From contig CALMUW010000043.1 of the NCBI GenBank assembly GCA_937872985.1, forward strand, positions 1,945 to 65,944: DNA of 64,000 bases, written 5' to 3'. Every line of letters begins with the position of its first letter. Position 1 is the stretch's first letter. Below, piece after piece: positions 10,049 through 55,896 of the stretch. A program made the translations under genes and the position numbers. Under the pieces are notes generated by a model. The model was not told the origin of the DNA, ran no database searches, and saw nothing but the letters and a program-made list of their open reading frames with translations. Source of the DNA: an uncultured Alphaproteobacteria bacterium. Its GTDB lineage: Bacteria; Pseudomonadota; Alphaproteobacteria; Rhizobiales; Aestuariivirgaceae.

Positions 10049-10053
10049 GGCGG

Positions 10054-11036
<983 letters not shown>

Positions 11037-11040
<4 letters not shown>

Positions 11041-12023: not shown

Positions 12024-12028
12024 GGCGG

Positions 12029-40550: not shown

Positions 40551-40595
40551 TGGCGTCCCGGAAGGGATTCGAACCCCTGACCCCAGGTTTAGGAA
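40551..40595 (-). pseudogene. 3' portion (positions 32-76) of the disrupted host tRNA-Arg(CCT) gene
   Basis: The reverse complement reads TTCCTAA-ACCTG-GGGTC-AGGGGTTCGAATCCCTT-CCGGGAC-G-CCA. There is no 5' half next to it. Confidence 0.9.
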
Positions 40596-40738
40596 TAAGG
40601 TCATAGTACGTCGATCCAGTGCCGGTCCGTGCGAATTGTTGGTTCGCAAACAGCACCTTACACGACATCATCGCTAATCGAAAGCCGATCCTGAGCGATC
40701 TGTTTTCGGTGTCTGACACAGTGTTCGGAGCGAGAAAA

Positions 40739-41908
40739 ATGGCTGTTGTGAATTTGACCGAGGCGCGCATCCGCGACCTCGAATATGGGTCCGGCATCTG
40801 GCGGGACGAACAGGTCAAGGGCCTGATGGTGATCTGCCATGCCACGACAAAGTCCTATGCCGTCCAGGGCGACGTGCGGCGGAACGGGCGGCATGTCCGC
40901 ACGGTCCGGGTGAAGATCGACCGGGTGGACCGGATGGGCCTGAGGGAGGCGCGGCGCAAAGCCAAGGAGCTGATGAGCACCATCCAGTCCGGTGTCGATC
41001 CCACGGCCCGTCCGCAGGAGAGCGGCATCACGCTCTCGCAGGCATTGGAAAAACACCTGGGCGAGAAGCCGTTCCGGGAAGCCACCGAGATCAGCTACCG
41101 CTACAACGTCGATCACTATCTTGTAAGGTGGAAGAACAAGGCAATTGCCGATCTTACACGGACGGACGTGCGGGACTTCTATGACACGCTCCGCTCAAAG
41201 AGCGGGCAGACGACGGCGACCTGTGTGCTGCGCACCCTTCGCGCCGTCATCAATACCGCCATGCGGCTCGACGAGACGCTCGTCTCGAACCCTGTCACCG
41301 CGATCCGCATTCCCAATCCGCCGAACCGGCAGGTGGGCGCCATCGACCTTGCAGCGTGGTGGGCCGAGACTGAAACGCTGAGCCCCATTCGCCGCGACCT
41401 GCACCGGGCCTTCCTGCTGACGGGTGCACGCCGGACCTCGCTTCTCACCGTGCGGCGCGATGACGTGGACCTTGAACGGGGCACGATGCATTTCCGGCAC
41501 TTGAAGGTTGGCGGGCAGATGTTGTTCCCGATGGGGAAGTGGCTCACCTCCGTCATCAAGGCCCGCATGGAGGAGGATGCACCGCTCAATTCACCGTGGC
41601 TGTGGTCTTCGCCGACGAGTGCGAGCGGCCGTGTGGAAGAACCCAAGGAAGGCCGCAAGGACCTGCCCAGCCCCCATGAATACCGCCACCTCGCCCGCAC
41701 CATGTTCATTGCGGCGGGTGTTCCCTATGCCGAAAGCGCGCTGCTTCTTGGGCAGAAACTGCCCGGTGCCTCGGGCGGCTATGTTCATGCCGAACACCTG
41801 GTCGAGCACCTGAGACCGATGACGCAGGCGCTGGAAGACAAGGTGCTGGCGGGAAGGCCGAAGCTGCTGCCGGCCCCTCAGGCGGATGGGCTCGACCATG
41901 CCGCGTAA
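40739..41908 (+). CDS. int: Tyrosine-type site-specific integrase (P4-like, N-terminal Arm/DUF4102-type domain)
   Basis: Trimmed to the ATG at 40739 (MAVVNLTEARIRDL...). The C-terminal catalytic region shows ARRTSLL, HEYRHLARTM and a late Y in GGYVH. 144 nt from the att core. Confidence 0.85.
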   Translation: MAVVNLTEARIRDLEYGSGIWRDEQVKGLMVICHATTKSYAVQGDVRRNGRHVRTVRVKIDRVDRMGLREARRKAKELMSTIQSGVDPTARPQESGITLSQALEKHLGEKPFREATEISYRYNVDHYLVRWKNKAIADLTRTDVRDFYDTLRSKSGQTTATCVLRTLRAVINTAMRLDETLVSNPVTAIRIPNPPNRQVGAIDLAAWWAETETLSPIRRDLHRAFLLTGARRTSLLTVRRDDVDLERGTMHFRHLKVGGQMLFPMGKWLTSVIKARMEEDAPLNSPWLWSSPTSASGRVEEPKEGRKDLPSPHEYRHLARTMFIAAGVPYAESALLLGQKLPGASGGYVHAEHLVEHLRPMTQALEDKVLAGRPKLLPAPQADGLDHAA

Positions 41909-42212
41909 GACCCGGACGCCGGATGACGAATTGCCGCCGGCACCGAACCAGAAGGAAAGGCCCGCAAAGCGACAAGGCCGCATCACCCTGGAAGATGTCG
42001 AGAGGACCGTGAAGTGGCTATTCGACATGCACCGCACCACCCCCTGGTTCGACACCGAAGCCGCTGCCGCCTATCTCAGGCGGGAGCCGGGAACGCTCAA
42101 AGGCTGGCGATCCAAGGGCGAAGGCCCGAAGTTCTACACCGTGAACGACAAGTTCATCCGCTATCACCTGGATGACCTTGACGCCTATGTGCGGGGAAAG
42201 GCGCGCCAGTAA
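41886..42212 (+). CDS. AlpA/Xis-like helix-turn-helix DNA-binding protein (paralog 1)
   Basis: PWFDTEAAAAYLRREPGTLKGWRSKGEGPKFYTVNDKFIRYHLDDLDAYV matches the HTH_17/excisionase pattern. An alternative start lies at 41898. Confidence 0.7.
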   Translation: MGSTMPRKTRTPDDELPPAPNQKERPAKRQGRITLEDVERTVKWLFDMHRTTPWFDTEAAAAYLRREPGTLKGWRSKGEGPKFYTVNDKFIRYHLDDLDAYVRGKARQ

Positions 42213-42426
42213 CTCCCGGTTGCGTCATTCAGCCACGCCCACGCAAACCCGAGAAACGTTGATGCCCATGAACCGGAAAAGGTGATCATTAGACGACGCG
42301 CGAGATTTCGAGGAAGCCCGAAAGGCATCTCGCGTGACCGGTGAAGCCGGTCTCCTCAGACAGAAAACCAGACGTCTGAACCTTGCCCTTCGGCTGAACC
42401 CGAATGGCAAAACGGAGACCCATACG

Positions 42427-42669
42427 ATGACATCATCCCTGACACGGCAGGATGTCGAAGACGCCCTGAAGCGCGTTCTCGACAGCCACAACCGCAGTCC
42501 CTGGCTCGATACCGAAGGGGCCGCCGTCTATATCGGCTCGACCCCCGGCACGATGCGCACCTGGCGTGCCGCAGGCGGAGGCCCGCGCTACCACGCCATT
42601 CACGGCAAGTCGGTGCGCTACCATGTGACCGATCTCGACGCCTTCATTCGCGGGGAGGTGGCACGATGA
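42427..42669 (+). CDS. AlpA/Xis-like helix-turn-helix DNA-binding protein (paralog 2)
   Basis: PWLDTEGAAVYIGSTPGTMRTWRAAGGGPRYHAIHGKSVRYHVTDLDAFI aligns position for position with paralog 1. ATG at 42427 (the tracked GTG at 42334 is also possible). ATGA overlap with the next gene. Confidence 0.7.
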   Translation: MTSSLTRQDVEDALKRVLDSHNRSPWLDTEGAAVYIGSTPGTMRTWRAAGGGPRYHAIHGKSVRYHVTDLDAFIRGEVAR

Positions 42670-44918
42670 CCAGTCCCACATATGAGAACGGACGCGCCCT
42701 GGAGTGTGGCGCGTCCGCAAGTGCCGAGGAGATGGCTGTCGTGTCCGACGCTTCCGAGAATGCCGGAACGGCTTCAGCCGAAGTGCCAGCATCTCACGAT
42801 CCGAAGGCGCTATCTGCCCACCTGAAGGCCGGTCATGACCTGATCCCGGTTGACGGCAAGGTTCCCGCAGAGAAGGGATGGCGGCGCTCGCCGTCTCTCT
42901 TGGCCGCCGACGCAAAGGCCCGGATGCGCAAGGGCGGCAACATCGGCGTTCGCCTGCGCGACACGGACCTGGTCATCGATATCGATCCCCGTCACTTCCG
43001 CGAAAATGACGATCCGCTTGGCCGACTCAAGGCGGATTTCGGTCTGCCTGATGCCCCTTTTGTCAGGACGGGCGGCGGTGGCCTGCACCTCTATCTGCGC
43101 AAGCCGACCCACATCCGGGTCGTCAACGGACTGCCTGACTATCCCGGCATTGAGTTCAAGTCGCATGGCCGTCAGGTCGTGGCGGCAGGCTCGATCCATC
43201 CTGACACGGCGAAGCCCTACAGCCTCGATGACGATCCGCTTGCTCTGACGCTGTCGGAAGCGCCCGAAGCGTCCACGGCACTCCTGAAGGCCATAGAGAA
43301 GCCGTCTGCGGCGTCATCGGACAGCAGTTACGGCGAACTCGATCCCGAACGCCTGGCGGAATGGCTGGGCTGGATTGACGTGTCAGATTATCGCGACGAG
43401 ACGAAGTGGCGGGAGCTGATGATGTCCTGCCACCAGGCAACAGGCGGAAGCGGCATTGACGAGTTCGCCGCCTGGTCAACATCCGATCCTGATTATTCTG
43501 CTCATGGCGGCAAGATCAGGCAGCGTTGGAACTCGCTCGACAACAAGCCAGGTGCGATCACCGTCCGTACCTTGATTGCGGCCTTGCCTGTCGCGCGGCG
43601 GCGCGAGGCGATCGAGTCTCTTGGCCGTGTTGCCGCGGCAGATGACTTCCCCGACAATGCCGAAGCGGGGCCTGCAACGGCACCACTGGCGGATGTCTGG
43701 GACGGCTGGGTCTTTGTTGCCGAAGCCATGCAGTTCATCCGGCGCGCGGATGGCCGGAAGTACCGCACTGATCAGTGGAAGGCGCTCCATGGCGGCCTCT
43801 ATCCCGATGGCGAGATTCTCAATGCCGTCTGGAAGTCCCGCATTCCCGTCAGGAAGTTCGAGAGGCTGGTTTATCTGCCGGAAGCACCCGAGTTCTCGGA
43901 AGGAGGCGAGAGTGGCGTCTACAACATCTGGCGCAAGTCAGGCGTCGAGGCAAAGCCCGGTGACGTGAAGCCGTTTCTGGATCACATGGCGTATCTGTTT
44001 CCCCATGAAGGGGACCGTGAACTGGTGCTCGACTATCTGGCATTGCTGACCCAGAAGCCTGCCCAGAAGATCCATTTTGCCCTTCTGGTGCGCGGATCGC
44101 AGGGAACCGGCAAGAGCTGGATCGGCAACCTGATGGAGCGGATCATCGGCAGGCCCAATGTGGTGCGGCCCTCGAATGACGAGGTCGTGTCGCGCTGGAC
44201 GCACTGGATGGAAGGCGCACAGCTGGCTATCGTCGAAGAACTGATGACGCTCGGCCGTCTTGAGGTGGCGAACCGCCTGAAGCCCGTCATCACCGACCCG
44301 ATGATCAGGATCGAGGAGAAGAACTGCTCACTCTACTCGATCCCCAATCACCTCAACTTCATCTGCTTCACCAACCACGATGACGCACTGAAGATCGAGC
44401 ATGGCGACAGGCGGTGGCTTGTCGTCTTCTCACCTGCAACCAAGCAGGAGCCTGACTACTATGACAGGCTCTTTGCCTACCTGGAGCATGGCGGTGCTGC
44501 CTTCGTGAAGCATTGGCTGATGCAGCGCCGCATCGTCCTCAATGGCCATGGCGTTGCGCCTGCGACCTCCGGCAAGGAGACAATGCGCAGGATGGCGATG
44601 GGGGATGCCGAGGCGTTCCTGCTGGACCTCCATGAGGCCAATGAGGCGCCCTTCGACTTTGACCTGGTGCGCGTCGATGATCTCGTCCAGGCGGTGCCTG
44701 CCAGGCTCTCAGGCAGGTCAAGCTTGCGCTCACGGCTTGCGAAGTTCCTGAAGGAGGAGCTGGGAGCTGTGGCGCACACCCGCTACACCAAGCAGAGTGC
44801 GAACAGGCCGTCATGGCAGCTTTGGTCACTGAGAAACCATGAGACATGGGAGAGCATCGGTGCCTCAGGCCGGATCGATGCCTATGTCGCGCACTATGCC
44901 ATCGACCTCATGCGTTGA
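42666..44918 (+). CDS. Replicase: bifunctional primase-polymerase (PrimPol) + PriCT-2-like + P-loop helicase (D5/VirE/DUF5906-type)
   Basis: 750 aa. N-terminal DLIPVDGKVPAEKGW...NIGVRLRDTDLVIDIDP (PrimPol-like), a middle DEFAAWSTSDPDY...RQRWNSL region (PriCT-like), then Walker A VRGSQGTGKSW and Walker B-like LAIVEE / RRWLVVFS. Confidence 0.8.
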   Translation: MTSPTYENGRALECGASASAEEMAVVSDASENAGTASAEVPASHDPKALSAHLKAGHDLIPVDGKVPAEKGWRRSPSLLAADAKARMRKGGNIGVRLRDTDLVIDIDPRHFRENDDPLGRLKADFGLPDAPFVRTGGGGLHLYLRKPTHIRVVNGLPDYPGIEFKSHGRQVVAAGSIHPDTAKPYSLDDDPLALTLSEAPEASTALLKAIEKPSAASSDSSYGELDPERLAEWLGWIDVSDYRDETKWRELMMSCHQATGGSGIDEFAAWSTSDPDYSAHGGKIRQRWNSLDNKPGAITVRTLIAALPVARRREAIESLGRVAAADDFPDNAEAGPATAPLADVWDGWVFVAEAMQFIRRADGRKYRTDQWKALHGGLYPDGEILNAVWKSRIPVRKFERLVYLPEAPEFSEGGESGVYNIWRKSGVEAKPGDVKPFLDHMAYLFPHEGDRELVLDYLALLTQKPAQKIHFALLVRGSQGTGKSWIGNLMERIIGRPNVVRPSNDEVVSRWTHWMEGAQLAIVEELMTLGRLEVANRLKPVITDPMIRIEEKNCSLYSIPNHLNFICFTNHDDALKIEHGDRRWLVVFSPATKQEPDYYDRLFAYLEHGGAAFVKHWLMQRRIVLNGHGVAPATSGKETMRRMAMGDAEAFLLDLHEANEAPFDFDLVRVDDLVQAVPARLSGRSSLRSRLAKFLKEELGAVAHTRYTKQSANRPSWQLWSLRNHETWESIGASGRIDAYVAHYAIDLMR

Positions 44919-44931
44919 TTGATTGCCTGAT

Positions 44932-45142
44932 GGTAGACAAGGGAGAACAGCCGGTGGACGCCTCACAAGTCCACCGGTTGTCGTAACAAGATCAGCCGCT
45001 TACGTATCGGTAGACAGAGTAGACAATATCTTTCAGCAATCTGTTCAACAGAACATGAGGCAATTGCATTGATAAGGGCAGGCGCTGAGGCGGCGAAGCT
45101 ATAGGACTTCGGAAACGTCGAAAATGCCGTCTGCCTGTCTAC
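44932..45142. repeat. Four copies of the 9-mer GGTAGACAR (three direct, one inverted) flanking an AT-rich stretch; candidate replication origin
   Basis: Copies at 44932-44940, 45009-45017, 45018-45026 (AGTAGACAA) and 45134-45142 (inverted). Also a 9-bp perfect hairpin CCGGTGGAC/GTCCACCGG at 44951-44977. Starts 14 nt after the replicase stop. Confidence 0.5.
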
Positions 45143-45599
45143 CGCCCAGGCATGGACCGGCTGAGCGATGGTGGCGCTCGCCTCGCAGACCCCGTAGTCC
45201 TCGCGCGTGCGACCCCTGAGGCAGTCAGGCAAGCAAGGCAGAGGCAGTACATGCCAGGTGCGGCGCCACGCTTTCGATGCTGCTGCGACGTGGATGACTG
45301 TGCCTCAGGGCCACCGAGGCGGCGTGCGGCAAATCTGAGAGGCAGGATCGAACCTCAGAGCATACGTGTCGTGATTGGGCGCTGTGAGTCGGGAAGATCA
45401 GCCGGTGCAAGGGCTTGGATGATTGTGACTGGGAAAGCACCGGCCCAGGCACTGGAAACAATCGCTGGACCAAGGGGGCTGGGAACAACCGACTTCCATG
45501 CGTCAGGCAGGCGGCGCTCTGGCATCACCACGTGCCTCATGCTCACTTACTGTCGGGTATATAGGGAGTTTTTATGAATTCGACGTATGGCTTGATGTA

Positions 45600-46859
45600 T
45601 CAATCCTCTCGCATGTCCGATATTTCCTTTATTGAGGGCCTTGCAAACGGTGGAAGCTTATCAGCCTTATACTGAGCCATTGATGCTAACCTATTTTCTT
45701 CCGCCTTCTGTAGCATAGCTCGAGCTGAGGCCTCCTGTTCAGGCGACAGAGGCTGCGAGAGGACAGCGCCAAACTTTTCGATGAAACTGCGTTCCACACC
45801 ATCGAATGAGAAATCGTTCTCCCATCCATTCAGCAGAGAATAATCTACCAACGACTGACAGCCATGTGGCAATGCTTTTCCCTTTCGAAACTGGCTATAT
45901 AGCCAGAGAATTACATCGGTGATTTGGATTCCAGGACTCTCGGAGTCTTCAAACACCTTGAACTGACTTCCTACAACCTTCTGAAGCTTGTAGCTCTCAC
46001 CGGCCCACTTGATCTCTTCCGGCGATGCATTCGAGAACATCTCGTGCCAAGCTTTCAGTGTCTGCTCGAACTCGCTCTGTTGGTCATGTTTGATGCTAGA
46101 AATCTTGCGCTTGCGCTGGGTAGACAGCATTTCCAAGCCGTCCAGAAGATTTGCGAAGGCCACAAGGTTGGGAAAGTGCCCATGTCTTGAAGTTTGTCGG
46201 TCCGTGTAAATCTGTATTGCCTCTGGGTTTTCTCGCGCCCAATTCAAGCCCTGACCTAGGACCTCACGTGATCGCGCATCGGGAACCTGATGTAGATTGC
46301 TAAGCAATCTGTCACAAACCTCTGGCAGCATTTTCAGTGCAACATCTTCCTTCGGCTCCAAGATGCTTTTCCAGAACAATTTGGCTGTATCTATATCGAT
46401 TGTAACAGCAAGCTTGAAGACCAGCATGAGCCTTGAAGCCCGGAGATTGTAGTGGTGCCAAGCGACTGCAGCATTCTCACCAGAGTCAAAAATTGCGTCG
46501 AACATTTTCGAACACAAGAGATACTTCTTTTCTACCCGCGACATGAAAAAAGTGGCTTCAGATGCATTCAGAATTTTGAGCAGTTGAGGTGCAATAACTT
46601 CTAGTCGACCCACTCCAAGTTTTTGCCCATGCAAAGCGTTCGAGCCATGCAAGTTTGCAAGGGAAACAACATCTTCTCTGAACCGTGGATCAAAATCTCC
46701 TTTGGTTATTAGCGCTGCCGCAAAAAAGTCAGGCTGGGCCTCATCAAAAAGATTGTGACCTGTATTTCCCGTTTCATCGACATAGGCAAAGAACGGGATT
46801 TTAGACTGACCCATCAGAGTTACTTCCGTAGTTGACACGCTCGGTAAGCCGAAAGGCAA
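45600..46859 (-). CDS. DUF3800-like protein (function unknown)
   Basis: 419 aa, low-GC. N-terminal FFAYVDETGNTG and late IQITDVILW resemble the two conserved DUF3800 motifs. An alternative start is M16 at 46814. Confidence 0.6.
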   Translation of the reverse strand: MPFGLPSVSTTEVTLMGQSKIPFFAYVDETGNTGHNLFDEAQPDFFAAALITKGDFDPRFREDVVSLANLHGSNALHGQKLGVGRLEVIAPQLLKILNASEATFFMSRVEKKYLLCSKMFDAIFDSGENAAVAWHHYNLRASRLMLVFKLAVTIDIDTAKLFWKSILEPKEDVALKMLPEVCDRLLSNLHQVPDARSREVLGQGLNWARENPEAIQIYTDRQTSRHGHFPNLVAFANLLDGLEMLSTQRKRKISSIKHDQQSEFEQTLKAWHEMFSNASPEEIKWAGESYKLQKVVGSQFKVFEDSESPGIQITDVILWLYSQFRKGKALPHGCQSLVDYSLLNGWENDFSFDGVERSFIEKFGAVLSQPLSPEQEASARAMLQKAEENRLASMAQYKADKLPPFARPSIKEISDMRED

Positions 46860-46921
46860 TAATGGCCTGACTAGAATTGAATACCCGCCATAAATTTACG
46901 AATCCATATGAGAATCACCAC

Positions 46922-47416
46922 ATGACGCGTTTGACGGTTGAAGCAAGAGAGGTGCGGCGGCCTGAGCTAGATCGCAGGTGGTCGCCTGCCATCGAGGAGC
47001 AGGTGCTGGACATCGTCGCAAGAACCGGGTCGCCGAAGATGGCAGCAGAGCAGATCGGCATTTCGGTCGCCACCATCCATGACCACAGGCGGCGCGATGC
47101 CGAATTTGGTGCGAAGTATGGTGCTGCCATGGACACAGCCTTTCATCAGGTTCTGAGCAAGGCTTTCGAGCGTTCTATGGACGATGCCGAGCCTTCGGAT
47201 CGCCTTATCGAGGTGCTGCTCAAATTTCGTTGGCCCGAACGCCTCAATGCTTTCCTGGCCTTCACGGCTGACGGCGGCTCGGCTGCTTCTGCGCCTGCCG
47301 GTCTTGATCCCCGTGTCATCGCCAGAATGGCACCCGCAGACAAGGCGGCACTGATCGAACTCCTTGGACGCTATCTCACGGTAGAAGCAGATGCCGCAAT
47401 CAAGCCAATCAACTGA
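46922..47416 (+). CDS. HTH protein resembling phage terminase small subunits
   Basis: ATG at 46922 (the tracked TTG at 46877 is possible). An HTH-like IVARTGSPKMAAEQIGISVATIHDHRRRD is followed by LIEVLLKFRWPERL, a pattern seen in terS-type proteins. Weak call. Confidence 0.4.
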   Translation: MTRLTVEAREVRRPELDRRWSPAIEEQVLDIVARTGSPKMAAEQIGISVATIHDHRRRDAEFGAKYGAAMDTAFHQVLSKAFERSMDDAEPSDRLIEVLLKFRWPERLNAFLAFTADGGSAASAPAGLDPRVIARMAPADKAALIELLGRYLTVEADAAIKPIN

Positions 47417-47648
47417 GACGGTGGAGCGGATGCTGCGCGATCTCGTGGCCGTCGAAGCCTTGGCAGCATCGCTGGAGGCCACAGCGCCCATCACCATCGC
47501 AGCGGAGGGTGGTGGAAGTCATCTTGTGGCCAATTATGGCCAGCCGACAGGCGCGTGGTTCTGGATGATCAGGCCCATGCCTGAGGAACTTTGGCTGCGC
47601 ATGGCTGATGAAAATCAGGTGAAGCACAGAGCAAATCCTGGTGAGTGA
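47391..47648 (+). CDS. Hypothetical protein
   Basis: 85-aa ORF overlapping the previous gene's end. Codon usage is compatible with coding, with no recognisable motif. Confidence 0.3.
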   Translation: MPQSSQSTETVERMLRDLVAVEALAASLEATAPITIAAEGGGSHLVANYGQPTGAWFWMIRPMPEELWLRMADENQVKHRANPGE

Positions 47649-47835
47649 TCGTCAATGATTGGAAGTGCGAAACGTGGTCTAGACCCAGTAACGGAAAGTG
47701 TTGCATGCGGCACACACTCACATGGGATAGTGTCGAAAAATGGCCTCATGTGAGTGTTCCCTTTTGGACGGGAAGAAAAAATGCGTTCATTGAATCTCTC
47801 CAGTACCGACGACAGATCGATTGAGGAGATGGAAA

Positions 47836-48222
47836 ATGGCTTGGAAGGGACGCAGCAGCTCACCTTGGAAGAACGGCTTCAACCGCACGGGTCCGGGAAC
47901 GCTTGAATACTTTGAAGACACGATTGGGCGTGAACTGAAGCGGGTGATTCAGGACGAAAACTCCCATCAGTTCCAACAATCGACAATGCGTGAAGATCGC
48001 GAAAAGATGGTCGCTGCGGAAAAGCTCATGGCCAAAATCGAAAAAGCCATTCAGGATTTCATCTATTTGAAAGACGGCAATCGCGAGGATGCCTATGAGA
48101 TTCTGTTTTCAAAGTTGAGCGAGAGAGCGGTCAGGAGGTTCGCCTACCAGAAATTTCATCTTATTGATCCGCTGAATCCTCCGATTGCTGGCACCGACAA
48201 GAATCAGACTGTTGCATCCTGA
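47836..48222 (+). CDS. Hypothetical protein (lower-GC)
   Basis: ATG at 47836 preceded by GAGGAG at 47824-47829. Charged helical 128-aa product with no recognisable motif. Confidence 0.4.
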   Translation: MAWKGRSSSPWKNGFNRTGPGTLEYFEDTIGRELKRVIQDENSHQFQQSTMREDREKMVAAEKLMAKIEKAIQDFIYLKDGNREDAYEILFSKLSERAVRRFAYQKFHLIDPLNPPIAGTDKNQTVAS

Positions 48223-48340
48223 TCGCGTCCGGTCGGCCGATGGGTCGTCCGTACCGCGATGGCGGTGACAACAAGACGGCTGAGCCCGCGCCTGTTTTCT
48301 CCCGGTTCGTCGCGTGATGCGATGACAAAGGAGATTGAGC

Positions 48341-49081
48341 ATGGCGGTCAAGAAGGTGGCCCTTGTGAACCGGTGGGTGTCCGTGACGGACGTATTCGAC
48401 CGATTGCGCCGGGCACGAGAAAATCGTGAGCAGCAGACAAAGTTGCTCGAAGGACTTGAAGGGCGAGCGAAGCAGCGCCGCGATGATGTGGAACGCTCGC
48501 TCGCCGATCTTTCCGTCAACCAGCGCAGCCAGATCGTGGCCCGCGCCGTGGGCGGCTACCGCGGTGAACTCAAGCGCCAGTCGCTCGACAGCCGCGTTGC
48601 CTATCTCAAGGCCATCGGCGCACTGCGCGAGGAAGTGAACTCAGCCCGCGCCCACTACCAGAGCCCGGTTCAGATGCTCGCACGCGAGGGCCTTGGCTCG
48701 GAGCGCCGTAGCCGTCTGCTTCACCAGATCGAAAAGTCCGGCAAGATCGAATTGGAATCGCTTGCAGCCTTTGCCGCCTCCACAGGCGACAAGGAACTCG
48801 CGGCAGCATTGCTCACCCGCAATTCCGGCCTTCCCATCAATGACCGCGCCTTTTCCTCCCAGGAACTGGCCGACGCCCTTGTCGGTGACGAATGGCGTAA
48901 GGTCACGCAGGCCATTGCCGAGGTGGACCGCCTCGCCGTTGAAGCTGTCCATGCCGACAGTGCCTTCGAGACGGGCAAGGCAAACCCCACGCGGGCAGTG
49001 GGCCTCGCGCTCATGCGGCGTGACGAGCGGGCCATCGGTGCCGATCTTTCAAACCTTGATGATGAAACACAGGAGGACTGA
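48341..49081 (+). CDS. Hypothetical protein (helical, phage-module context)
   Basis: ATG at 48341 preceded by AAGGAG at 48328-48333. 246 aa with high-GC codon bias typical of coding sequence. Confidence 0.5.
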   Translation: MAVKKVALVNRWVSVTDVFDRLRRARENREQQTKLLEGLEGRAKQRRDDVERSLADLSVNQRSQIVARAVGGYRGELKRQSLDSRVAYLKAIGALREEVNSARAHYQSPVQMLAREGLGSERRSRLLHQIEKSGKIELESLAAFAASTGDKELAAALLTRNSGLPINDRAFSSQELADALVGDEWRKVTQAIAEVDRLAVEAVHADSAFETGKANPTRAVGLALMRRDERAIGADLSNLDDETQED

Positions 49082-49083
49082 CC

Positions 49084-49350
49084 ATGCCGACTTATGCCTT
49101 TTTCCCCGCTCGTGAAGAACAGCGTCGCAGCGACCAGTTGAACTTTGCCGTCGCAGTTGGTGCGAGCGCATCCGCCGCCCGATCCGTTGCCGAAACGCTG
49201 CTCGGTGAGCCGAATGCGCTTGTCGGCTGGTCGTCTGTCGATCTCACGTCCGCGCCTGCCGCCTTTGTTCCCGGCCTTCCCATCGGTGCAAGGGTGCAAT
49301 CAACTTGGCCGAACCTCGACCGGGGCGGTTCCTATCTGCGGGGGGCTTGA
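49084..49350 (+). CDS. Hypothetical protein
   Basis: 88-aa ORF starting 3 nt after the previous stop. Tight packing suggests a phage-type operon. Confidence 0.4.
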   Translation: MPTYAFFPAREEQRRSDQLNFAVAVGASASAARSVAETLLGEPNALVGWSSVDLTSAPAAFVPGLPIGARVQSTWPNLDRGGSYLRGA

Positions 49351-49697
49351 TGATGACCGAGGAGACATATCGCAGCTTCTTCGGCGTTCCCGGCCTCAAC
49401 CACTCGACCAAGCTCCGCCAGTTTGAAGGCTTCGTGCGGGAGCGCCTTGCCGGGTGTGCCGTCACCGATCCGATGGACGCGCATCTCGCCTTTGGCGGCA
49501 CCTTCGAGGAGTTCGACGAGCACGCCTGCCGCGCTACGACCGGCCTCTTGCTGATCTTCGGCTATGAGCCGCAGCCTGAGGGCGTCTACCTCCGCAAGGA
49601 GGCATGGCCTGAGGACAAGCGGGCAGTCGGCCGCAGATTTCACATTGAACGGCTCAAGCGGCTGAACTTCGGGCCGAAGCGCGGAAAGGTGAGGTGA
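49350..49697 (+). CDS. Hypothetical protein
   Basis: The ATG at 49350 overlaps the previous stop by 1 nt (TGATG). 115 aa. Confidence 0.4.
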   Translation: MMTEETYRSFFGVPGLNHSTKLRQFEGFVRERLAGCAVTDPMDAHLAFGGTFEEFDEHACRATTGLLLIFGYEPQPEGVYLRKEAWPEDKRAVGRRFHIERLKRLNFGPKRGKVR

Positions 49698-49700
49698 CGC

Positions 49701-50141
49701 ATGGGCGGGCTTGATGACTTCGCCAGGCGCATTAGCCGGCTGTCCGTCCAGGTCGAAGGCAACGTCGAGCAGGCGGTCAAGGACTGTGCCAAGGCGGTCA
49801 CGCGAGCCGTGATCAATGCTACGCCTGTCGATACCGGCAGAGCGCGCTCCAACTGGACAGCCGAACTCGACCAGGCATTCCGCCAACTGTTCCCAGCGCA
49901 TGTGCTGGGCGAAAAGGGCAGCACTGGCGAGGCGAACGCCGAAGCCGCAATCAGTCAGGCAAACGAGCTGATTGACCGCTTCGACATCACCGCCAATCGG
50001 GAAATCCACATTGCCAACAGCCTGCCATACATCGGGGCGCTCAATGATGGGCATTCCAAGCAGGCGCCTGCTGGTTTCGTCCAGGAAGCCGTCATGGAAG
50101 GGCTGGCAACGGTGCGGGATGCCAAAATCCTGATGGACTGA
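49701..50141 (+). CDS. HK97 gp10-family phage head-tail (neck) protein-like
   Basis: 146 aa. INATPVDTGRARSNW is the characteristic gp10-family motif. Confidence 0.6.
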   Translation: MGGLDDFARRISRLSVQVEGNVEQAVKDCAKAVTRAVINATPVDTGRARSNWTAELDQAFRQLFPAHVLGEKGSTGEANAEAAISQANELIDRFDITANREIHIANSLPYIGALNDGHSKQAPAGFVQEAVMEGLATVRDAKILMD

Positions 50142-50148
50142 GGCTTGC

Positions 50149-50367
50149 CTATTTCTTTGCCGGTGTCAGCAGTTCGGCGGGCGTTGTCTTGAGCCGGTCG
50201 GCCAGCTTGAAAATCAGCATCAGCGACGGATTGCGCTTGGCTCGTTCGATGCCGGAAATGTAGGTCCGGTCGATTTCCGTCTCCAGGGCAAACGCCTCCT
50301 GCGACAGGTCCAGTTCCTTTCGGGCCTGCTTCACATTTTCCGCCAAGACTCGCTTGTAGTCAGCCAT
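50149..50367 (-). CDS. Small XRE-family HTH regulator (controller/repressor-like)
   Basis: 72 aa. LSQEAFALETEIDRTYISGIERAKRNPSLMLIFKLADRL is a classic XRE HTH of the type also found in restriction-modification C proteins. Confidence 0.8.
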   Translation of the reverse strand: MADYKRVLAENVKQARKELDLSQEAFALETEIDRTYISGIERAKRNPSLMLIFKLADRLKTTPAELLTPAKK

Positions 50368-50642
50368 ACCGCCATGCAGCGGATATGTCGACTAATCGTC
50401 CACGGACTCATCGTCAGCCGATGTGAGAGACGCTACTGAGCGCTATCGACAGTGGTACGGCTACGAGGCCATGGTCAAGATTGGCGATCACATGCTTGCC
50501 GCCAAATTTGCGCGGGATGGAAAGCATAGGCGATTTCTTAAGCGGGTGTCCGCAAATCTACTGCAAATCGTTTAATCAAGGCAGCGTGCTGCCAAAGCGT
50601 CGGGATGATGAAATAAACTTGCTCAGAGAGTCTGTAGGCACT

Positions 50643-51929
50643 CTAAGATGCATCAAGTATAACCAGACTCTCTCTGAGAAACGGGCCTCCCGCATCCATT
50701 CGTTTACTCAACTCATCCCACTGTTGACAAGCGACTCGTCTTAGTCGGCGTAAGACAACTACTTCTCGAAGTGACCAACCCGATCGCCCTGCGATGTCAG
50801 CAATAATAAGATCCACCGGAATTTCCACGCCACAATAAGCGGAAGTCGAGACAACCAACCAAATGCTTGCGTCTGGTTTTGATCGCTTTCGAAGCCTGCT
50901 CAAAACCTTACTCATGTCTTCGAAGTAGGCTTGAATCATGAGCGGCAGTCGTGAATTCCATGGATTCTTGTCCACTTGAACATTCCACGCAACTGCATCT
51001 TGAAGTGCACCTATCGCCGTCAAATAGCTTTGACCAAAATCACTTTGTGAAGGAGAGGGCCAAGAGACTTGTACATGAGAACGTAAGGTCGCTAGCCTCA
51101 AGGATCTCAGCTGATCCATGTCTTTGACAAGGCCGCTCAAAAACAATTCTGGACGGTAAACATCTGTATAGTCAAAAGAGTTCAAGTATGGTGGCGACGT
51201 TACGCATAGATCAAATCTTTCCTTAGATCCAAAGGAACGAGAATCTCCACGAGCGATACTCGCCTTGATACTTTGGGGTTGATCAAGATCCAGGTCCTCT
51301 TTTACTATGTCAGCACGCGAAATTAGTGCGGATATAAGAGAGTCCCGATTGAACCTCAGTTGATCCCAGTTCTTGCGATATCGCAAACACTTGCCATCCT
51401 TCACGGCATTGGCGGAGTCCATGGCTGCGCCAATCAAGCAAAGTCGAACCATGTCGTATTCAGGCCCAACTTTCTTCGCGATGCTTTGTAGCCCTCCCTC
51501 AAATGCATTCAGGACTTTGGAGTTAAAAAGCCATTTTCCCTGTGCTTTGGCTTTGGGAGCTTTCTCTGAGAAGGTTGAGAAAGTCGCGAGATTGCTGCTA
51601 GCTCCATGTTGGATCCCGAGCAACGTAGACTTGAGCGCCTTGTCAAAAGCATTCAGCGATGCGGATTGCGATTTCGTATTTGCAACAAATTGGAGAAATG
51701 GGTTGACCTCTGTGCCTACTCCTCGCCTTCCTCCCAAGCCAGCTTCAAGTGGTGTCGTGCCACTCCCAGAAAAAGGATCAAACACCGTTGCATCAATAGG
51801 CAAATCCTCGGAAGCCATCGCATGCTTCACGATGCCTGGTGAGAAAGCTTCTTTAAAAAAGTACCATCGATGCCTTGGCAGCCGCTCAGCTTCCAAAGCA
51901 CTCACATTTGGTAAAGTTTTCGAATCCAT
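50643..51929 (-). CDS. DNA methyltransferase (SAM motif I before catalytic SPPY; N6A or N4C type)
   Basis: VFDPFSGSGTTPLEA (motif I, residues 56-70 in tracked-ORF numbering from 51950) and CVTSPPYLNSFDY (motif IV, residues 249-261). The ATG at 51929 overlaps the upstream TAA by 1 nt. The tracked start at 51950 is an alternative. Confidence 0.8.
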   Translation of the reverse strand: MDSKTLPNVSALEAERLPRHRWYFFKEAFSPGIVKHAMASEDLPIDATVFDPFSGSGTTPLEAGLGGRRGVGTEVNPFLQFVANTKSQSASLNAFDKALKSTLLGIQHGASSNLATFSTFSEKAPKAKAQGKWLFNSKVLNAFEGGLQSIAKKVGPEYDMVRLCLIGAAMDSANAVKDGKCLRYRKNWDQLRFNRDSLISALISRADIVKEDLDLDQPQSIKASIARGDSRSFGSKERFDLCVTSPPYLNSFDYTDVYRPELFLSGLVKDMDQLRSLRLATLRSHVQVSWPSPSQSDFGQSYLTAIGALQDAVAWNVQVDKNPWNSRLPLMIQAYFEDMSKVLSRLRKRSKPDASIWLVVSTSAYCGVEIPVDLIIADIAGRSGWSLREVVVLRRLRRVACQQWDELSKRMDAGGPFLRESLVILDAS

Positions 51930-52990
51930 TAGCTCACAATCGGTTCGCAAAACATTCGAACGGGAGCTTCGAAATCGTCTCTTTGTTCGTGATATTTGGG
52001 ATTATAATCAATTTCCTCGTCCCGATAATGAAGTCCGTCAGACACCGAAAGTGACGTCGCGCCTTTATGTAGTCCGCGCCTACGAGCGTCGAATACTACT
52101 AGATAGCCCCGAGAGCGAAGACCGGGGCCAGCTGTTAGATTTGCATCAAGGTATTCGGCAAGCTGCTTTGCACCGTCGCGCGCACGCGAAGCCGTGTAAG
52201 CAGTCGTAAACGTCCCATCCTCTTCACATGACTGCCCGAGCCATTTTATCTCAATCAGCGCTCTCTGATTGGTGTCGACCCAAGTTACTTTAATGTCTAC
52301 GGGATGGCTTTCATCTACAATTTGCTCTGGCCGAACCTCTGCAAAGCGGCCGATCGTGGAAGCCAAGTGCTGCAGAAGGGACCGGCGCATTGTCGCTTCA
52401 GGCTTAGTGCGCAGGAAAATGCGTCTTGGCTCTCGCCAAGCGTCTTTCAATATGTAGCAACTGGTGTACCGAGCAACTCGGTTACGATATCCTTCTAAGG
52501 CATCCGACAAGGATGAAAATGTTGGCCTCGCAAACACGCTTGCGTGGGTGGGGGCTGCTGGATTGATTACGGTGTAGCTTTCTCCACCGATGTAGAAGCG
52601 CTCGTGCCCGTTATCGTATAAATAAACGATAGCTTCGGCGGACAAGGCGACTAAGTTGTGGGCGTTTAGATCAAAAACGGAAACTTGTCCTGCACTAGAA
52701 ACTTCAACCATACACGCTGAGTCAAGCTCGTGTTGTAGCCCGGAAATATGCGCAACTTGATGCAGCGCCTGCGGCCCGCATTGGGAGGCCGGTAATAGCG
52801 ACGGCGACGGGCGAATGAATACAACTAGGGGCACGCTTCTAGTCGCGGGCTCCATTAGTCGATAAATCTGAGTTATGATCTCAACAAGCTCCCGCAAAGC
52901 CTGTGGGCCAGCTAAGCCAAAATGCTTGTTAGCTGCAGCTGAATGAAGGTTTGAAGCAATCTCTTTCATTTTCTGAATATCGAGCGTCAA
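51929..52990 (-). CDS. PD-(D/E)xK-type nuclease candidate with an uncharacterised N-terminal domain
   Basis: 353 aa. HPVD(232)IKV ... ALIE(247)IK(249)W fits a D...ExK catalytic core. The TTG start forms TTGA with the upstream stop (ATG alternative at 52969). Low GC. Confidence 0.55.
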   Translation of the reverse strand: MTLDIQKMKEIASNLHSAAANKHFGLAGPQALRELVEIITQIYRLMEPATRSVPLVVFIRPSPSLLPASQCGPQALHQVAHISGLQHELDSACMVEVSSAGQVSVFDLNAHNLVALSAEAIVYLYDNGHERFYIGGESYTVINPAAPTHASVFARPTFSSLSDALEGYRNRVARYTSCYILKDAWREPRRIFLRTKPEATMRRSLLQHLASTIGRFAEVRPEQIVDESHPVDIKVTWVDTNQRALIEIKWLGQSCEEDGTFTTAYTASRARDGAKQLAEYLDANLTAGPGLRSRGYLVVFDARRRGLHKGATSLSVSDGLHYRDEEIDYNPKYHEQRDDFEAPVRMFCEPIVS

Positions 52991-53592
52991 GATTCTGCTC
53001 CGCGATCTTGCCGAGAAACCGGCTGCTCAGCAACATAGCTAAGCCAAATCATAGCTGGAGTTAGCAAGTCTCCCTGAACGCCAACTGCTTGGGACAGAGC
53101 ATCAAACTGCTCATGAAGCAAGGCTATCGCAGGTCCATCTAAGAGGCCAGCGCCACCCTTTCGCAAAAGGGCACTATGCATAGTTGGCTCTTTATCTAAA
53201 CTTTCAATTAGGGTCGCGGCGGGAACAACAATTGTGCTGCCACAAGCCGCGTGTAGGAAGCGCTTTCTTCCTGACAGATTGGACATCTCACCTAGTGATT
53301 GGGTAAGTTCCTTTCCGCGCCTTGAAAGTTGAAAGCTACCATTCGCGTCCTCAATGAGGCTCGCCTCTGCTAGTGTATCCAAGGCGTCACTTATGCTTGA
53401 ACTAAACGGTGTACCAAATTCGGTGCGGGCAAATCTATAGCCCCAATCGGCCACTGGTTGTCCCTCATAAAGTGCCAACAAACAGGCAAGGTAGGTTGCT
53501 CGCTGGACTTCAAGGCGCGTTACACGGCCAAATGAAGGTTCCAATTCTGTGATAATGGAAAGTGTATCGAATACTGCTTCGGGGCTATGCAT
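52987..53592 (-). CDS. Small adaptor / middle-component protein, no recognisable motif
   Basis: 201 aa. The ATG at 53592 directly abuts the TAG of the ATPase gene. Predicted helical. Positioned like LmuC / ABC-3C middle components. Confidence 0.5.
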   Translation of the reverse strand: MHSPEAVFDTLSIITELEPSFGRVTRLEVQRATYLACLLALYEGQPVADWGYRFARTEFGTPFSSSISDALDTLAEASLIEDANGSFQLSRRGKELTQSLGEMSNLSGRKRFLHAACGSTIVVPAATLIESLDKEPTMHSALLRKGGAGLLDGPAIALLHEQFDALSQAVGVQGDLLTPAMIWLSYVAEQPVSRQDRGAES

Positions 53593-55587
53593 CTAATTCA
53601 CTGCCGCAGGGCCCAGGTCCAATGCTTTGGAAATGTCTTTGTAGGCGCTTTCAAACAATCTAGTAGCGCTCTGCTGGACGTCCGAAAGCTCTGCCCATCC
53701 AATCATTTGATTCAGCGTCATATGCTTTCTACCGCATCGCTTGCCTAAGGTAGTCAGCAGTTTCGAGCTATTAATATTTGCGGTCATTATGAGATCGTGT
53801 CCGCTTTGAACAAATTGAGCGAACATATCACCGGCGCGGTCTTCGTATGCAATATCCAACGATCCTTCAGGAGTATCGACAAACAAAGTAGCCGGTGAAC
53901 TCGAGACAGACATCTGTTGTGCCAAGGCCATTCGAAGCGCGATATCGACAAAGAAGCGCTGACTCTCGGACATTTGAGATTCGTCATGCCTCGCGTTTCC
54001 CCTTAATTCGACTAACAACTTCATACCCACGGGAGCGGTGAGTTTTAACTGTACATCGAGATCAATGCCTAAGAACAACTCTGCCAATTCGCGGAACCGG
54101 GGAAGAAAGCTTTCTTCAGCGCGAGCATATCGAACCTCTAGGTCCTGCTGGAGTTTTTTTAATTCAGTTCTTATTTGATCACGCTCGGCGTAGTCGGCAT
54201 CACGTTGAGCCGTGAACTCTGCCATGGCGAGTTGTAAATTTTGAATTGTCTGAGCAAGTGGGTTGCTTTGGCTTTCATGCCTCGTTTTTAATACTTGAAC
54301 AATTTCAGAATGTTCTTTTTCGAACTTTTCTAACGCCTCTCTCGCGGCCACGACTTCTACTTTAACGCCCTCCAACTCACGACGAAGCCTGTCTTGCGAA
54401 GCTATAGCGTCGTCTAATTCCAGTCGCGCTATTGATAGACGTTGATCGATATCTGCCAGCTCTGCCTTTCCAGAAGCGCTAAGGTCCCCAGTATTGTCAA
54501 TCGGCGAACCACACATCGGACATACGCCTGCATCGACCTTTTGCTGAACAAGCGCCGTAACGTGAGTTCCGGATGAGTCGCAGACTCCGCAGACACCTTC
54601 ATTGAGTGCACGAATTACTAATGAGTGGCTTCTTGCTTTAGAAGCACCGTGAAGGAAACGATTAAAGGCTTCTGTGTAAGCAGATCGCAAACTTGCGACA
54701 TTTGAGCTGCGCTGGGCAATGTGAACTTCCAGTTCGGAGAGCTGAGCTGCGATCCTAGCTGATCGTTCAGAAGTCAAAGTGATCGCTTCAGTAATACCTT
54801 CGTATTGGGCGTCTAAATCTACAGGCGAAACAACAGTCGTGTCGGCTTGTAATGATTGTTGGAGTATTTCAATTCGTCTTCGCGTCTGATTAACTTGGAA
54901 TTGCGTGTTGCGTCCTCTGGATCCCGCTTTTTCCGCCTCTCGGTTTAGAGTATCGGCTCTCACGGCATCTTCAGGATTGCCGCCGAAGCAGAGAAACAGA
55001 ACTTGCGCAGCGGCTGCATCGTCCCAAAACAATAGGTGCCGAGCTTCATCGAAAGTGAAAACGAAATGCTGAAGGAACACAAATTGTTCAAATGACTTTA
55101 AGCCAATCGCATCAGTGACGGACTGTCGATAGAGATCGGCCATCTGCAGGGGAGTTGGGGAACTGCCTTTGTTGTCAACGGAGCTTCCGTTGATAGTAAA
55201 CTTCCTGAAATCATTCGGATCAAACAACCCACGTGTAACTTCAAATCGTTTTGTGGCAATGTCAAACTCTAGGGTCACTGCAGCATCGTCACGATCACTT
55301 TCGGCAATACGACCGTTGAAATACTCTGCTGCGTAGTCGGACGATTCTTTGAGATAATTTTGGTTTGAAAGTAGTCTTCTCCTGGGATGAGGCACAGCGC
55401 CAGTCAGCCCATAGTTGACTGTAGCCAAAAACGTCGACTTCCCTATGCCATTCGCTCCGGCGAGACACGTCACTCCGTCTTTTAATTCAATGGAGATGTT
55501 CGGCTGTAATCCGTAAAGCGAAAATGCTCCAAAACTAATTCTTCTAAGCTTTGGAAAGGCATATCGCCTGAGGTTTTCTTTTTGCAT
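53593..55587 (-). CDS. SMC/Rad50-like ABC ATPase with a coiled-coil insert and a Cys4 knuckle
   Basis: 664 aa. Walker A GANGIGKST (44-52), a long heptad-rich insert (~210-530), CGVC (333-336) and CPMC (356-359), signature-like SESQR (540-544), and Walker B ATLFVDTPEGSLD (566-578). Confidence 0.8.
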   Translation of the reverse strand: MQKENLRRYAFPKLRRISFGAFSLYGLQPNISIELKDGVTCLAGANGIGKSTFLATVNYGLTGAVPHPRRRLLSNQNYLKESSDYAAEYFNGRIAESDRDDAAVTLEFDIATKRFEVTRGLFDPNDFRKFTINGSSVDNKGSSPTPLQMADLYRQSVTDAIGLKSFEQFVFLQHFVFTFDEARHLLFWDDAAAAQVLFLCFGGNPEDAVRADTLNREAEKAGSRGRNTQFQVNQTRRRIEILQQSLQADTTVVSPVDLDAQYEGITEAITLTSERSARIAAQLSELEVHIAQRSSNVASLRSAYTEAFNRFLHGASKARSHSLVIRALNEGVCGVCDSSGTHVTALVQQKVDAGVCPMCGSPIDNTGDLSASGKAELADIDQRLSIARLELDDAIASQDRLRRELEGVKVEVVAAREALEKFEKEHSEIVQVLKTRHESQSNPLAQTIQNLQLAMAEFTAQRDADYAERDQIRTELKKLQQDLEVRYARAEESFLPRFRELAELFLGIDLDVQLKLTAPVGMKLLVELRGNARHDESQMSESQRFFVDIALRMALAQQMSVSSSPATLFVDTPEGSLDIAYEDRAGDMFAQFVQSGHDLIMTANINSSKLLTTLGKRCGRKHMTLNQMIGWAELSDVQQSATRLFESAYKDISKALDLGPAAVN

Positions 55588-55682
55588 TGTTGCTTTCCGT
55601 CGACCGCGGCCTGCAACATGCTATTCTAACGGTAAAGTGTTTTCTACCAGTACGTTAGATAAATGAGAGATAGTGAGGTGTC

Positions 55683-55759
55683 TGGCCTCCCGGAAGGGAT
55701 TCGAACCCCTGACCCCAGGTTTAGGAAACCTGTGCTCTATCCTGCTGAGCTACCGGGAG
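55683..55759 (-). tRNA. tRNA-Arg (anticodon CCT), complete, carried by the island
   Basis: The reverse complement folds by hand as CTCCCGG-TA-GCTC-AGCAGGATA-GAGC-A-CAGGT-TTCCTAA-ACCTG-GGGTC-AGGGG-TTCGAAT-CCCTT-CCGGGAG-G-CCA. Confidence 0.9.
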
Positions 55760-55857: not shown

Positions 55858-55896
55858 TTAGGAAACCTGTGCTCTATCCGGCTGAGCTACCGGGAC
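55858..55896 (-). pseudogene. 5' portion (positions 1-38) of the disrupted host tRNA-Arg(CCT) gene
   Basis: The reverse complement reads GTCCCGG-TA-GCTC-AGCCGGATA-GAGC-A-CAGGT-TTCCTAA. Its acceptor strand is complementary to the 3' fragment at 40551-40595. Confidence 0.9.

Follow-up and report, generated by a model that had tools for sequence, protein, structure and literature searches.

A four-gene cassette joining a Rad50/LmuB-like ABC ATPase, an adaptor and a PD-(D/E)xK nuclease to a DNA methyltransferase: a candidate mobile restriction-modification-type defence system

The 64,000-nt stretch analyzed here (hereafter the window; contig CALMUW010000043.1 of an uncultured alphaproteobacterium of the Aestuariivirgaceae, assembly GCA_937872985.1) carries on its minus strand, at positions 50643-55587, a cassette of four tightly packed genes (~4.9 kb), which encode a coiled-coil ATP-binding cassette (ABC) ATPase, a small middle component that we term the adaptor, a nuclease and a DNA methyltransferase, the first three being referred to together as the trio. 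From the sequences and the conservation of these genes, we consider it rather probable that the cassette is a mobile defence system of the restriction-modification type, in which the restriction arm is a Rad50/LmuB-like ABC ATPase complex and not a superfamily 2 (SF2) helicase or a lone Type II enzyme. A previous sequence-only reading of the same DNA had noted four minus-strand open reading frames (ORFs) with no intergenic space, and both the ORFs and the three junctions are exactly as it gave them: the ATPase TAG directly abuts the adaptor ATG at 53592 (TAG/ATG), the adaptor TGA overlaps the nuclease TTG start as TTGA (52990-52987), and the nuclease TAA overlaps the methyltransferase ATG as TAATG (51931-51927), an overlap of 1 nt. 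Independent gene calls on public contigs encoding identical proteins return the same four protein lengths, and the TTG start of the nuclease is supported by the alignment, as its homologues begin at the same position.

The evidence that these genes form a single unit comes from their conservation. A scan of one genome each for 185,579 species, searched by nuclease pattern, returned 30 loci that span Acidobacteriota, Alpha-, Beta- and Gammaproteobacteria, Myxococcota, Actinomycetota, Chloroflexota, Planctomycetota, Verrucomicrobiota, Binatia and Clostridium. As established with tblastn, the order ATPase-adaptor-nuclease is kept in 30/30 loci wherever the contig allows, and a methyltransferase of the same family is adjacent in 29 of them, the exception (L017) having a different PF01555 methylase 1.1 kb downstream; the sequence-only reading had proposed searching genomes for the same four-gene order, and this is the outcome. 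Clustering of the 488 ORFs of these 30 loci evidences these four recurring families only, with no fifth gene family and no helicase recurring in the neighbourhoods. All four genes are also found on two distinct viral contigs in an ATPase-anchored scan of viral contigs, the methyltransferase being adjacent in all viral-contig loci left uncut by a contig end. Among the genome and viral-contig loci examined there is no trio without a nearby methylase, a result that fits toxicity of the trio when methylation is absent. Clearly, finding the gene set again in more than 30 unrelated genomes goes far beyond what chance would give, and across phyla the four genes are passed on as a single unit.

The relation between the methyltransferase and the other genes is looser in position than in family. 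It lies mostly downstream on the same strand, is convergent in five loci and upstream in three, and this flexibility indicates that the linkage is functional, beyond operon inheritance alone. Correlations of pairwise identities range from 0.76 to 0.88 within the trio, and those between trio and methyltransferase amount to 0.45-0.48 overall and to 0.69-0.84 within the main methyltransferase clade, a pattern which suggests that the trio is a tightly co-evolving core and that methyltransferases from two clades of a single family have replaced each other. The placement on either side or on the opposite strand, the lower overall correlation and the Type II label that PADLOC gives to the methyltransferase could also be read as a three-gene Lamassu-like module standing side by side with an independent orphan or Type II methyltransferase. 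We regard this as extremely improbable and effectively refuted by co-occurrence, considering the adjacency in 29 of the 30 genome loci, in the window and in all uncut viral-contig loci, over at least 8 phyla, the lack of any other recurring family, the higher correlation within the main clade, the overlap of the two genes in the window and the association of the same methyltransferase family with a distant sister trio (see below). A fortuitous neighbour, which the previous reading had named as the outcome that would overturn its proposal, is thus not what is seen, since the methyltransferase is adjacent in 29/30 loci and co-evolves with the trio in its main clade.

The methyltransferase matches Pfam N6_N4_Mtase (PF01555), PADLOC MTase_II (PDLC03224, 2.8e-44) and PHROG 18146 (1e-41). 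Its motif I, DPFSGSGT (~residues 50-58), precedes the catalytic motif IV, S245-P-P-Y248; SPPY is invariant in 29 methyltransferase sequences, as are F53, G55 and T58 of the DPFxGSGT motif, and as judged from these residues the S-adenosylmethionine-binding and SPPY catalytic motifs are intact. The PDB profile matches, namely TTHA0409 (2zie), cytosine-N4 methyltransferases and M.PvuII, have the two motifs in the opposite order, from which it results that the enzyme is circularly permuted in respect to the beta-class N6/N4 enzymes. The motif SPP[YF] is typical of N4-cytosine methyltransferases and [DN]PP[YFW] of N6-adenine enzymes; by its motif the protein is probably an N4-cytosine enzyme.

The partners of this methyltransferase family in other loci bear directly on the role of the trio. 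A methyltransferase-anchored scan of viral contigs yielded 12 loci, two of which carry the canonical trio. In four others (L039, L042, L047 and L049) the methyltransferase adjoins genes for a ~670-710-aa ATPase, a ~210-220-aa protein and a ~350-365-aa protein, and the hhalign probabilities are 100% to the ATPase, 98.4% to the nuclease and 77% to the adaptor families. These ATPases are 22-25% identical to that of the window and have two CxxC motifs and, where readable, a Walker B of the form D-A-P-E; in L039 the methyltransferase is 47% identical to the one in the window versus 25% for the ATPase. In terms of sequence, these trios form a distant sister clade that shares the architecture of the window's trio. 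In L045 and L046 the gene convergent with the methyltransferase encodes a ~950-aa protein that combines an Mrr or AlwI-type nuclease with a ResIII/SF2 helicase. For the L045 protein there is a match (1e-98) to a PADLOC Type IIG enzyme model, in its N-terminal nuclease-helicase part, and the ~950-aa proteins look like a split single-chain restriction enzyme. The sister trio and the Mrr-nuclease/SF2-helicase proteins, taken as partners, suggest that this methyltransferase family is a modification partner common to different ATP-dependent restriction arms, and its pairing with helicase-nuclease restriction proteins is the strongest argument that the trio itself is an ATP-dependent restriction arm. 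It also supports the hybrid put forward in the previous reading, in which an SMC-like protein controls the nuclease and a co-translated methyltransferase marks self DNA, the function being inferred from sequence. Two further observations were made in these loci: directly beside the sister-clade trio of L047 there is a gene for a 939-aa protein uniting a ResIII helicase and a TnsA-like endonuclease domain (9916-12735, minus strand), which may be a fifth component there or belong to a neighbouring system, and in L048 a methyltransferase of the same family is convergent with an 849-aa KaiC-like ATPase.

The ATPase has a Walker A motif (G44-T52), a signature motif (S540-R544), a degenerate Walker B/D-loop (D571-T-P-E574-G-S-L-D578) and, at the coiled-coil apex, a four-cysteine zinc-hook motif formed by C333, C336 and C356-P357-x-C359. 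Invariant in the family are GANGxGKST, SESQ, D571-T-P-E-G-x-L-D578 and the cysteines C333/C336/C356/C359; the hook follows the pattern CxxC-19-CPxC, with P357 conserved in at least 90% of the sequences. As far as sequence tells, the nucleotide-binding motifs and the zinc hook are intact. All of the motifs listed in the previous reading (GANGIGKST, SESQR, FVDTPEGSLD, D232/E247/K249, DPFSGSGTT and TSPPY) are present, with the correction that what it called Walker B is degenerate, having Thr for the catalytic Glu. In fact, a PDB search with the single ATPase sequence matched LolD alone, and in the alignment to LolD (DEPTGNLD) Thr572 occupies the position of the catalytic Glu, the residues D571-T572-P573-E574 being invariant. 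Against the PADLOC model of LmuB (PDLC03859) the protein scores 1.3e-20 over residues 31-585 of 664, and LmuB is the best defence family for 22/22 members of the ATPase family (best E 1.2e-28), ahead of mad3 and DndD/PbeC; the score being moderate, the ATPase is by sequence a distant relative of LmuB. Matches to AAA_23 and SMC_N in Pfam, weak matches to SMC and Rad50 in NCBIfam and profile matches to SMC3, Rad50 and SMC heads in the PDB complete the assignment, so that the Rad50/SMC/LmuB-like part of the previously proposed "SMC-like DNA sensor or motor" holds, and the motor part is uncertain as the catalytic Glu is replaced. Distant ATPase homologues (23-26% identity) that lack the four-gene setting, or stand where the contig ends, were also noted in L015 (14380-15285, minus strand) and L037 (7726-8427).

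The matches of the ATPase to Rad50, SMC and SbcC-type models could alternatively place the cassette in DNA repair or maintenance, as a module of the SbcCD/Rad50-Mre11 type whose methylase would serve strand or replicon marking, with no defence role. We find this very unlikely: the distribution is sporadic (~30 among 185,579 species genomes in the pattern scan), the composition is foreign, the genes travel as island or viral-contig cargo in varying genomic contexts, and there is no Mre11-type phosphoesterase, its place being taken by a restriction-type nuclease paired with a methylase.

The nuclease comprises two domains. The C-terminal one (~195-353) is a PD-(D/E)xK core with invariant E222, D226, E227, H229, P230, D232, E247 and K249, the catalytic set of which is intact by sequence. 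The N-terminal domain (~residues 1-190), in which residues 61-100 are the most variable segment, has no type assigned; a DisA/CdaA-type domain was considered for it and discarded, as the Foldseek E-value is ~1e-3 but the template-modelling (TM) score is 0.24 and the root mean square deviation 11 Å. The AlphaFold2 model has a mean predicted local distance difference test (pLDDT) of 90 and a predicted TM score (pTM) of 0.82, and its C-terminal part has weak Foldseek matches to Nt.BspD6I, Hjc, HindIII, SwaI and viral PD-(D/E)xK or restriction nucleases. No match was obtained in Pfam, PADLOC, NCBIfam, PHROGs or the PDB sequence search. The family is nevertheless large: a word-indexed search gave 821 relatives, all unnamed and without Pfam domains, and an exhaustive hidden Markov model search of 1.84 billion proteins gave 599 clusters at 50% identity.

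The adaptor, always found between the ATPase and the nuclease in the loci, has invariant residues W50, P62, L176 and W183. Its AlphaFold2 model (mean pLDDT 92.5, pTM 0.90) consists of a winged-helix domain followed by a helical domain, the best Foldseek matches being chains B and D of the DarTG complex 7yk3 (TM ~0.5) and PadR-type regulators, and the PDB sequence search returned a weak match to the Sso10a winged helix and nothing else. On the basis of the model, the protein is probably of a DNA-binding-type fold. There is no significant match in Pfam, NCBIfam or PHROGs; in PADLOC the sole match is to LmuC (PDLC03871), non-significant at E=0.027 over 50 residues, and Lamassu chains are absent from the top 50 fold matches. 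Two other assignments were examined and not adopted. One homologue named Panacea in UniRef and a small sheet with a conserved G-x-P motif, a motif with which the Panacea domain has been described, led to an antitoxin domain of the Panacea/DUF4065 type, to which 0/57 members conform (PF13274 at E<=0.05), so that it stands as a lead at most. An apparent fusion of ATPase and adaptor in L008 and L028 was dismissed, since direct translation evidences a stop codon between the genes.

Taken as a restriction-modification-type system, the cassette could operate as follows. The methyltransferase would mark a short motif on the host DNA, probably as N4-methylcytosine. The ATPase would dimerise through its zinc hook and, with the winged-helix adaptor, hold the nuclease, and this complex would engage DNA via ATP-dependent engagement of the heads, with slow or no ATP hydrolysis expected given that the catalytic Glu is replaced by Thr. 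The nuclease would then cut DNA that is devoid of the mark. In Type III systems, Mod supplies sequence recognition to Res, and the methyltransferase could likewise supply it to the ATPase complex: by this analogy, the use of one methyltransferase family and its co-evolution with the trio suggest that it is probably part of the complex and reads the sequence.

A number of results weigh against this proposal. The ATPase lacks the canonical Walker B catalytic Glu, and by analogy with what has been proposed for Lamassu LmuB it may be a clamp or a sensor instead of a motor. The fold matches of the nuclease to characterised restriction enzymes are no better than E ~1e-3, and the N4-cytosine assignment is drawn from SPPY and general motif knowledge. 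The nearest neighbours of the cassette across the loci are heterogeneous (housekeeping, Tn7-like and plasmid genes), the direct ones being mostly housekeeping or mobile and only some of them defence genes, so that there is no clear enrichment in defence islands. Also, neither a promoter upstream of the ATPase nor a terminator following the methyltransferase came out of a consensus scan, which yielded fewer sites than shuffled sequence does and is uninformative for that reason.

The genomic setting in the window is that of a mobile element. The previous reading had put the cassette at the cargo end of a tRNA-integrated island, and indeed the tRNA-Arg, a 45-nt repeat and an integrase were found (coordinates of these and of the other features are collected in the table). 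The island (40551-55759, ~15.2 kb) is bounded by 45-nt repeats of tRNA-Arg, a second match of which occurs in 0/100 shuffled sequences; beyond the tRNA-Arg comes CarD, a core gene. The tyrosine integrase, which belongs to the context and not to the system, matches Arm-DNA-bind_3, Phage_integrase and Phage_int_SAM_4 in this order with E-values of 7e-6 to 1e-4, each slightly under the Pfam curated cut-off. Other island genes are two AlpA-like HTH_17 genes, a prim-pol/DUF5906 primase-helicase, a small terminase subunit (phrog_4044) and an HK97 gp10-like gene; from this gene content the island is phage-satellite-like, with the cassette as its tRNA-proximal cargo. The GC (guanine plus cytosine) content of the cassette is 48.7% (47.6-50.9% per gene) versus 64.1-64.4% in the flanking core DNA, a contrast which the previous reading had already pointed out, its figure of 40-48% being slightly too low. 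The cassette is of foreign origin and mobile, as follows from its low GC content in respect to the host, its place as cargo of a tRNA-integrated satellite-like island and its presence on two viral contigs.

Some neighbouring features deserve a brief description. The gene for a 72-aa helix-turn-helix (HTH) protein downstream of the methyltransferase matches the model of restriction-modification controller (C) proteins (PADLOC Control_protein, PDLC03665, 8.4e-17; HTH_3 in the gene call). It was rejected as a fifth component, having no clear homologue at that place in other loci, and could be either a regulator acting locally on the cassette or a repressor belonging to the island itself. The DUF3800 gene, the product of which has no PADLOC match, may be further foreign cargo or a defence gene of the island. 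A second copy of tRNA-Arg's 5' half, 37 nt long and ending within the anticodon loop, is present at 55858-55894 (minus strand), ~100 nt upstream of the intact tRNA-Arg, and may have been left behind when an element integrated or excised there earlier.

Table. Features of the cassette and its island in the window, and coordinates of related loci on viral contigs.
Feature	Sequence	Coordinates	Strand	Length	Remarks
Coiled-coil ABC ATPase, Rad50/LmuB-like	window	53593..55587	-	664 aa	
Middle component (adaptor)	window	52987..53592	-	201 aa	winged-helix and helical (model)
Nuclease, two domains	window	51929..52990	-	353 aa	TTG start
DNA methyltransferase	window	50643..51929	-	428 aa	counted from ATG
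XRE-type HTH gene	window	50149..50367	-	72 aa	276 nt downstream of methyltransferase, same strand
tRNA-Arg(CCT), integration site	window	55683..55759	-		ARAGORN
Direct repeat, proximal copy	window	55683-55727		45 nt	3' 45 nt of tRNA-Arg; repeat search and alignment
Direct repeat, distal copy	window	40551..40595	-		one mismatch; far island end; repeat search and alignment
Tyrosine integrase	window	40619..41908	+		context
DUF3800 gene	window	45600-46859	-	419 aa	47.6% GC; Pfam 9e-5
Sister-clade trio	L039	4196-9230			
Sister-clade trio	L042	7878-12978			
Sister-clade trio	L047	4841-9908			
Sister-clade trio	L049	1893-7055			
Mrr/AlwI-helicase locus	L045	7830-12061			
Mrr/AlwI-helicase locus	L046	116-4404			
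KaiC-like locus	L048	7914-11717			

In respect to known systems, profile searches of PADLOC v2 (including its candidate PDC systems), Pfam and NCBIfam did not place the four genes in a named system, and in PADLOC v2 genes 2 and 3 lack a model, both for the clade in the window and for the sister clade. The claim that this architecture is not among the named systems is thus sustained by PADLOC, in which the nuclease has no match, the adaptor has the LmuC match described above, the ATPase matches LmuB and the methyltransferase is a generic Type II enzyme. Full-text searches of the literature retrieved no description of the cassette, with a prior computational mention remaining possible, and SMC, Rad50 and Lamassu all go unmentioned in a review of host-dependent restriction-modification from 2025.

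In the case of MADS (methylation-associated defence system), the mad3 model matches the ATPase at 1e-14 (21/22 members) and mad2 weakly matches the methyltransferase (5e-5); however, MADS has eight genes (PADLOC mad1-8) versus four, the mad3 match covers the ATPase head and not the coiled coil, and neither the nuclease nor the adaptor matches a mad model. With Wadjet (JetABCD) the cassette would have in common an ATPase complex of the SMC family whose attached nuclease cleaves foreign DNA, but it has no kleisin, KITE or Toprim components and JetC models match 1/22 ATPases; Wadjet, for its part, carries no methyltransferase and recognises plasmids by the size or shape of their DNA (PMC10586767). 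Another case is that of the DndD/CxC systems (Dnd, PbeABCD and methylase-bearing variants), in which DNA modification and a nuclease go together with a cysteine-hooked coiled-coil ABC ATPase, and the cassette might be a member of these PbeABCD-type systems, some of which have circularly permuted cytosine-N4 methylases in their neighbourhoods (PMC10853773); also, 12-14/22 ATPases match DndD or PbeC models, with a best E of ~1e-12. This we judge highly improbable, because the partners that define CxC systems, i.e. DndE, an HKD-nuclease/SF2-helicase (PbeA) and a small disordered protein (PMC10853773), are absent in 31 loci, the adaptor, a winged-helix protein of 200 aa, matches neither DndE nor PbeD, the hook is CxxC...CPxC and not CxC, and the ATPase scores far lower on DndD/PbeC than on LmuB.

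A different type of likeness is found with the Type I, III and ISP restriction-modification systems. Like them, the cassette joins an NTPase and a PD-(D/E)xK-type nuclease to a cognate methyltransferase; its restriction genes, with an intact nuclease strictly co-inherited, never occur in the loci unless a methylase is nearby, and the methyltransferase family also pairs with Mrr-nuclease/SF2-helicase proteins resembling the motor-nuclease part of single-chain restriction enzymes. In contrast to them, the cassette has no SF2 helicase, its only NTPase being the ABC ATPase, and it has an extra winged-helix adaptor and no separate specificity subunit. The motors of restriction-modification systems are SF2 helicases in Types I and III and an AAA+ GTPase in McrBC, with none in Type II, so that an ABC/Rad50-like ATPase acting as restriction motor or sensor would, if true, add a class. 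We tentatively propose, with confidence somewhat short of even, that the cassette is such a new class of restriction-modification system, in which a zinc-hook ABC ATPase and a winged-helix adaptor replace the helicase motor of Types I and III and the methyltransferase reads the sequence, and which would be an evolutionary bridge from self-sparing restriction to abortive Lamassu, both using one sensor and release machinery that methylation renders safe in the cassette. In practical terms, the cassette is compact (4.9 kb) and easily cloned, and is present in many phyla as well as on satellites and contigs of prophage-like type. It may be a source of a new nuclease sensitive to methylation and of an N4-cytosine methyltransferase family.

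The closest comparison for the core is with Lamassu (ABC-3C; LmuA-LmuC-LmuB, DdmABC), a system that is thought to kill the host because the released nuclease cannot tell self from non-self. Both have a coiled-coil ABC ATPase (~650 aa in the cassette, ~600-650 aa for the LmuB type), and LmuB is the best match of the ATPase throughout its family. Both have a CPxC zinc hook where the coiled coil has its apex, described as CPxCG or similar for LmuB (PMC10586767), and both have lost the Walker B Glu, which is replaced by Gln in LmuB (PMC10586767), D-Q there versus D-T-P-E in the cassette and D-A-P-E in the sister clade. A small middle gene stands between ATPase and nuclease effector, so that the operon position of the adaptor fits LmuC (types MC1-MC8), the profile match to which is faint and non-significant. 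Considering in addition that the published mechanism of LmuACB is one of sequestration followed by release, the cassette could be a Lamassu-type triggered system, in which the LmuB-like dimer and the adaptor sequester the nuclease until DNA ends, hairpins or replication intermediates release it; the trigger would be a DNA structure and not an unmethylated site, and the methyltransferase would only spare the host chromosome, making an abortive system survivable. This is the main rival reading and, in our view, an unlikely one. LmuA has an N-terminal enzymatic domain and a C-terminal docking/oligomerisation domain, whereas the nuclease of the cassette matches no LmuA model and has its catalytic domain at the C-terminus, the reverse order. 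The gene order is reversed as well, B-C-A in the cassette versus A-C-B in lmuA-lmuC-lmuB, as the previous reading had remarked, and solved Lamassu proteins are absent from the PDB sequence or fold matches of the cassette proteins. Furthermore, Lamassu as described in the literature comprises three genes, acts by abortive infection and has no modification gene, whereas in the cassette a methyltransferase adjoins the other genes in all complete loci; that one methyltransferase family is required suggests a place for it in the complex, and the helicase-nuclease partners of that family point to classical self/non-self restriction. The cassette is not a member of Lamassu in the current sense, and by analogy its core probably works like one. 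A Lamassu relative that carries a methyltransferase would, if the proposal is true, be a natural test of self-sparing machinery, would help to identify what LmuB-like sensors recognise and would link two large defence families mechanistically.

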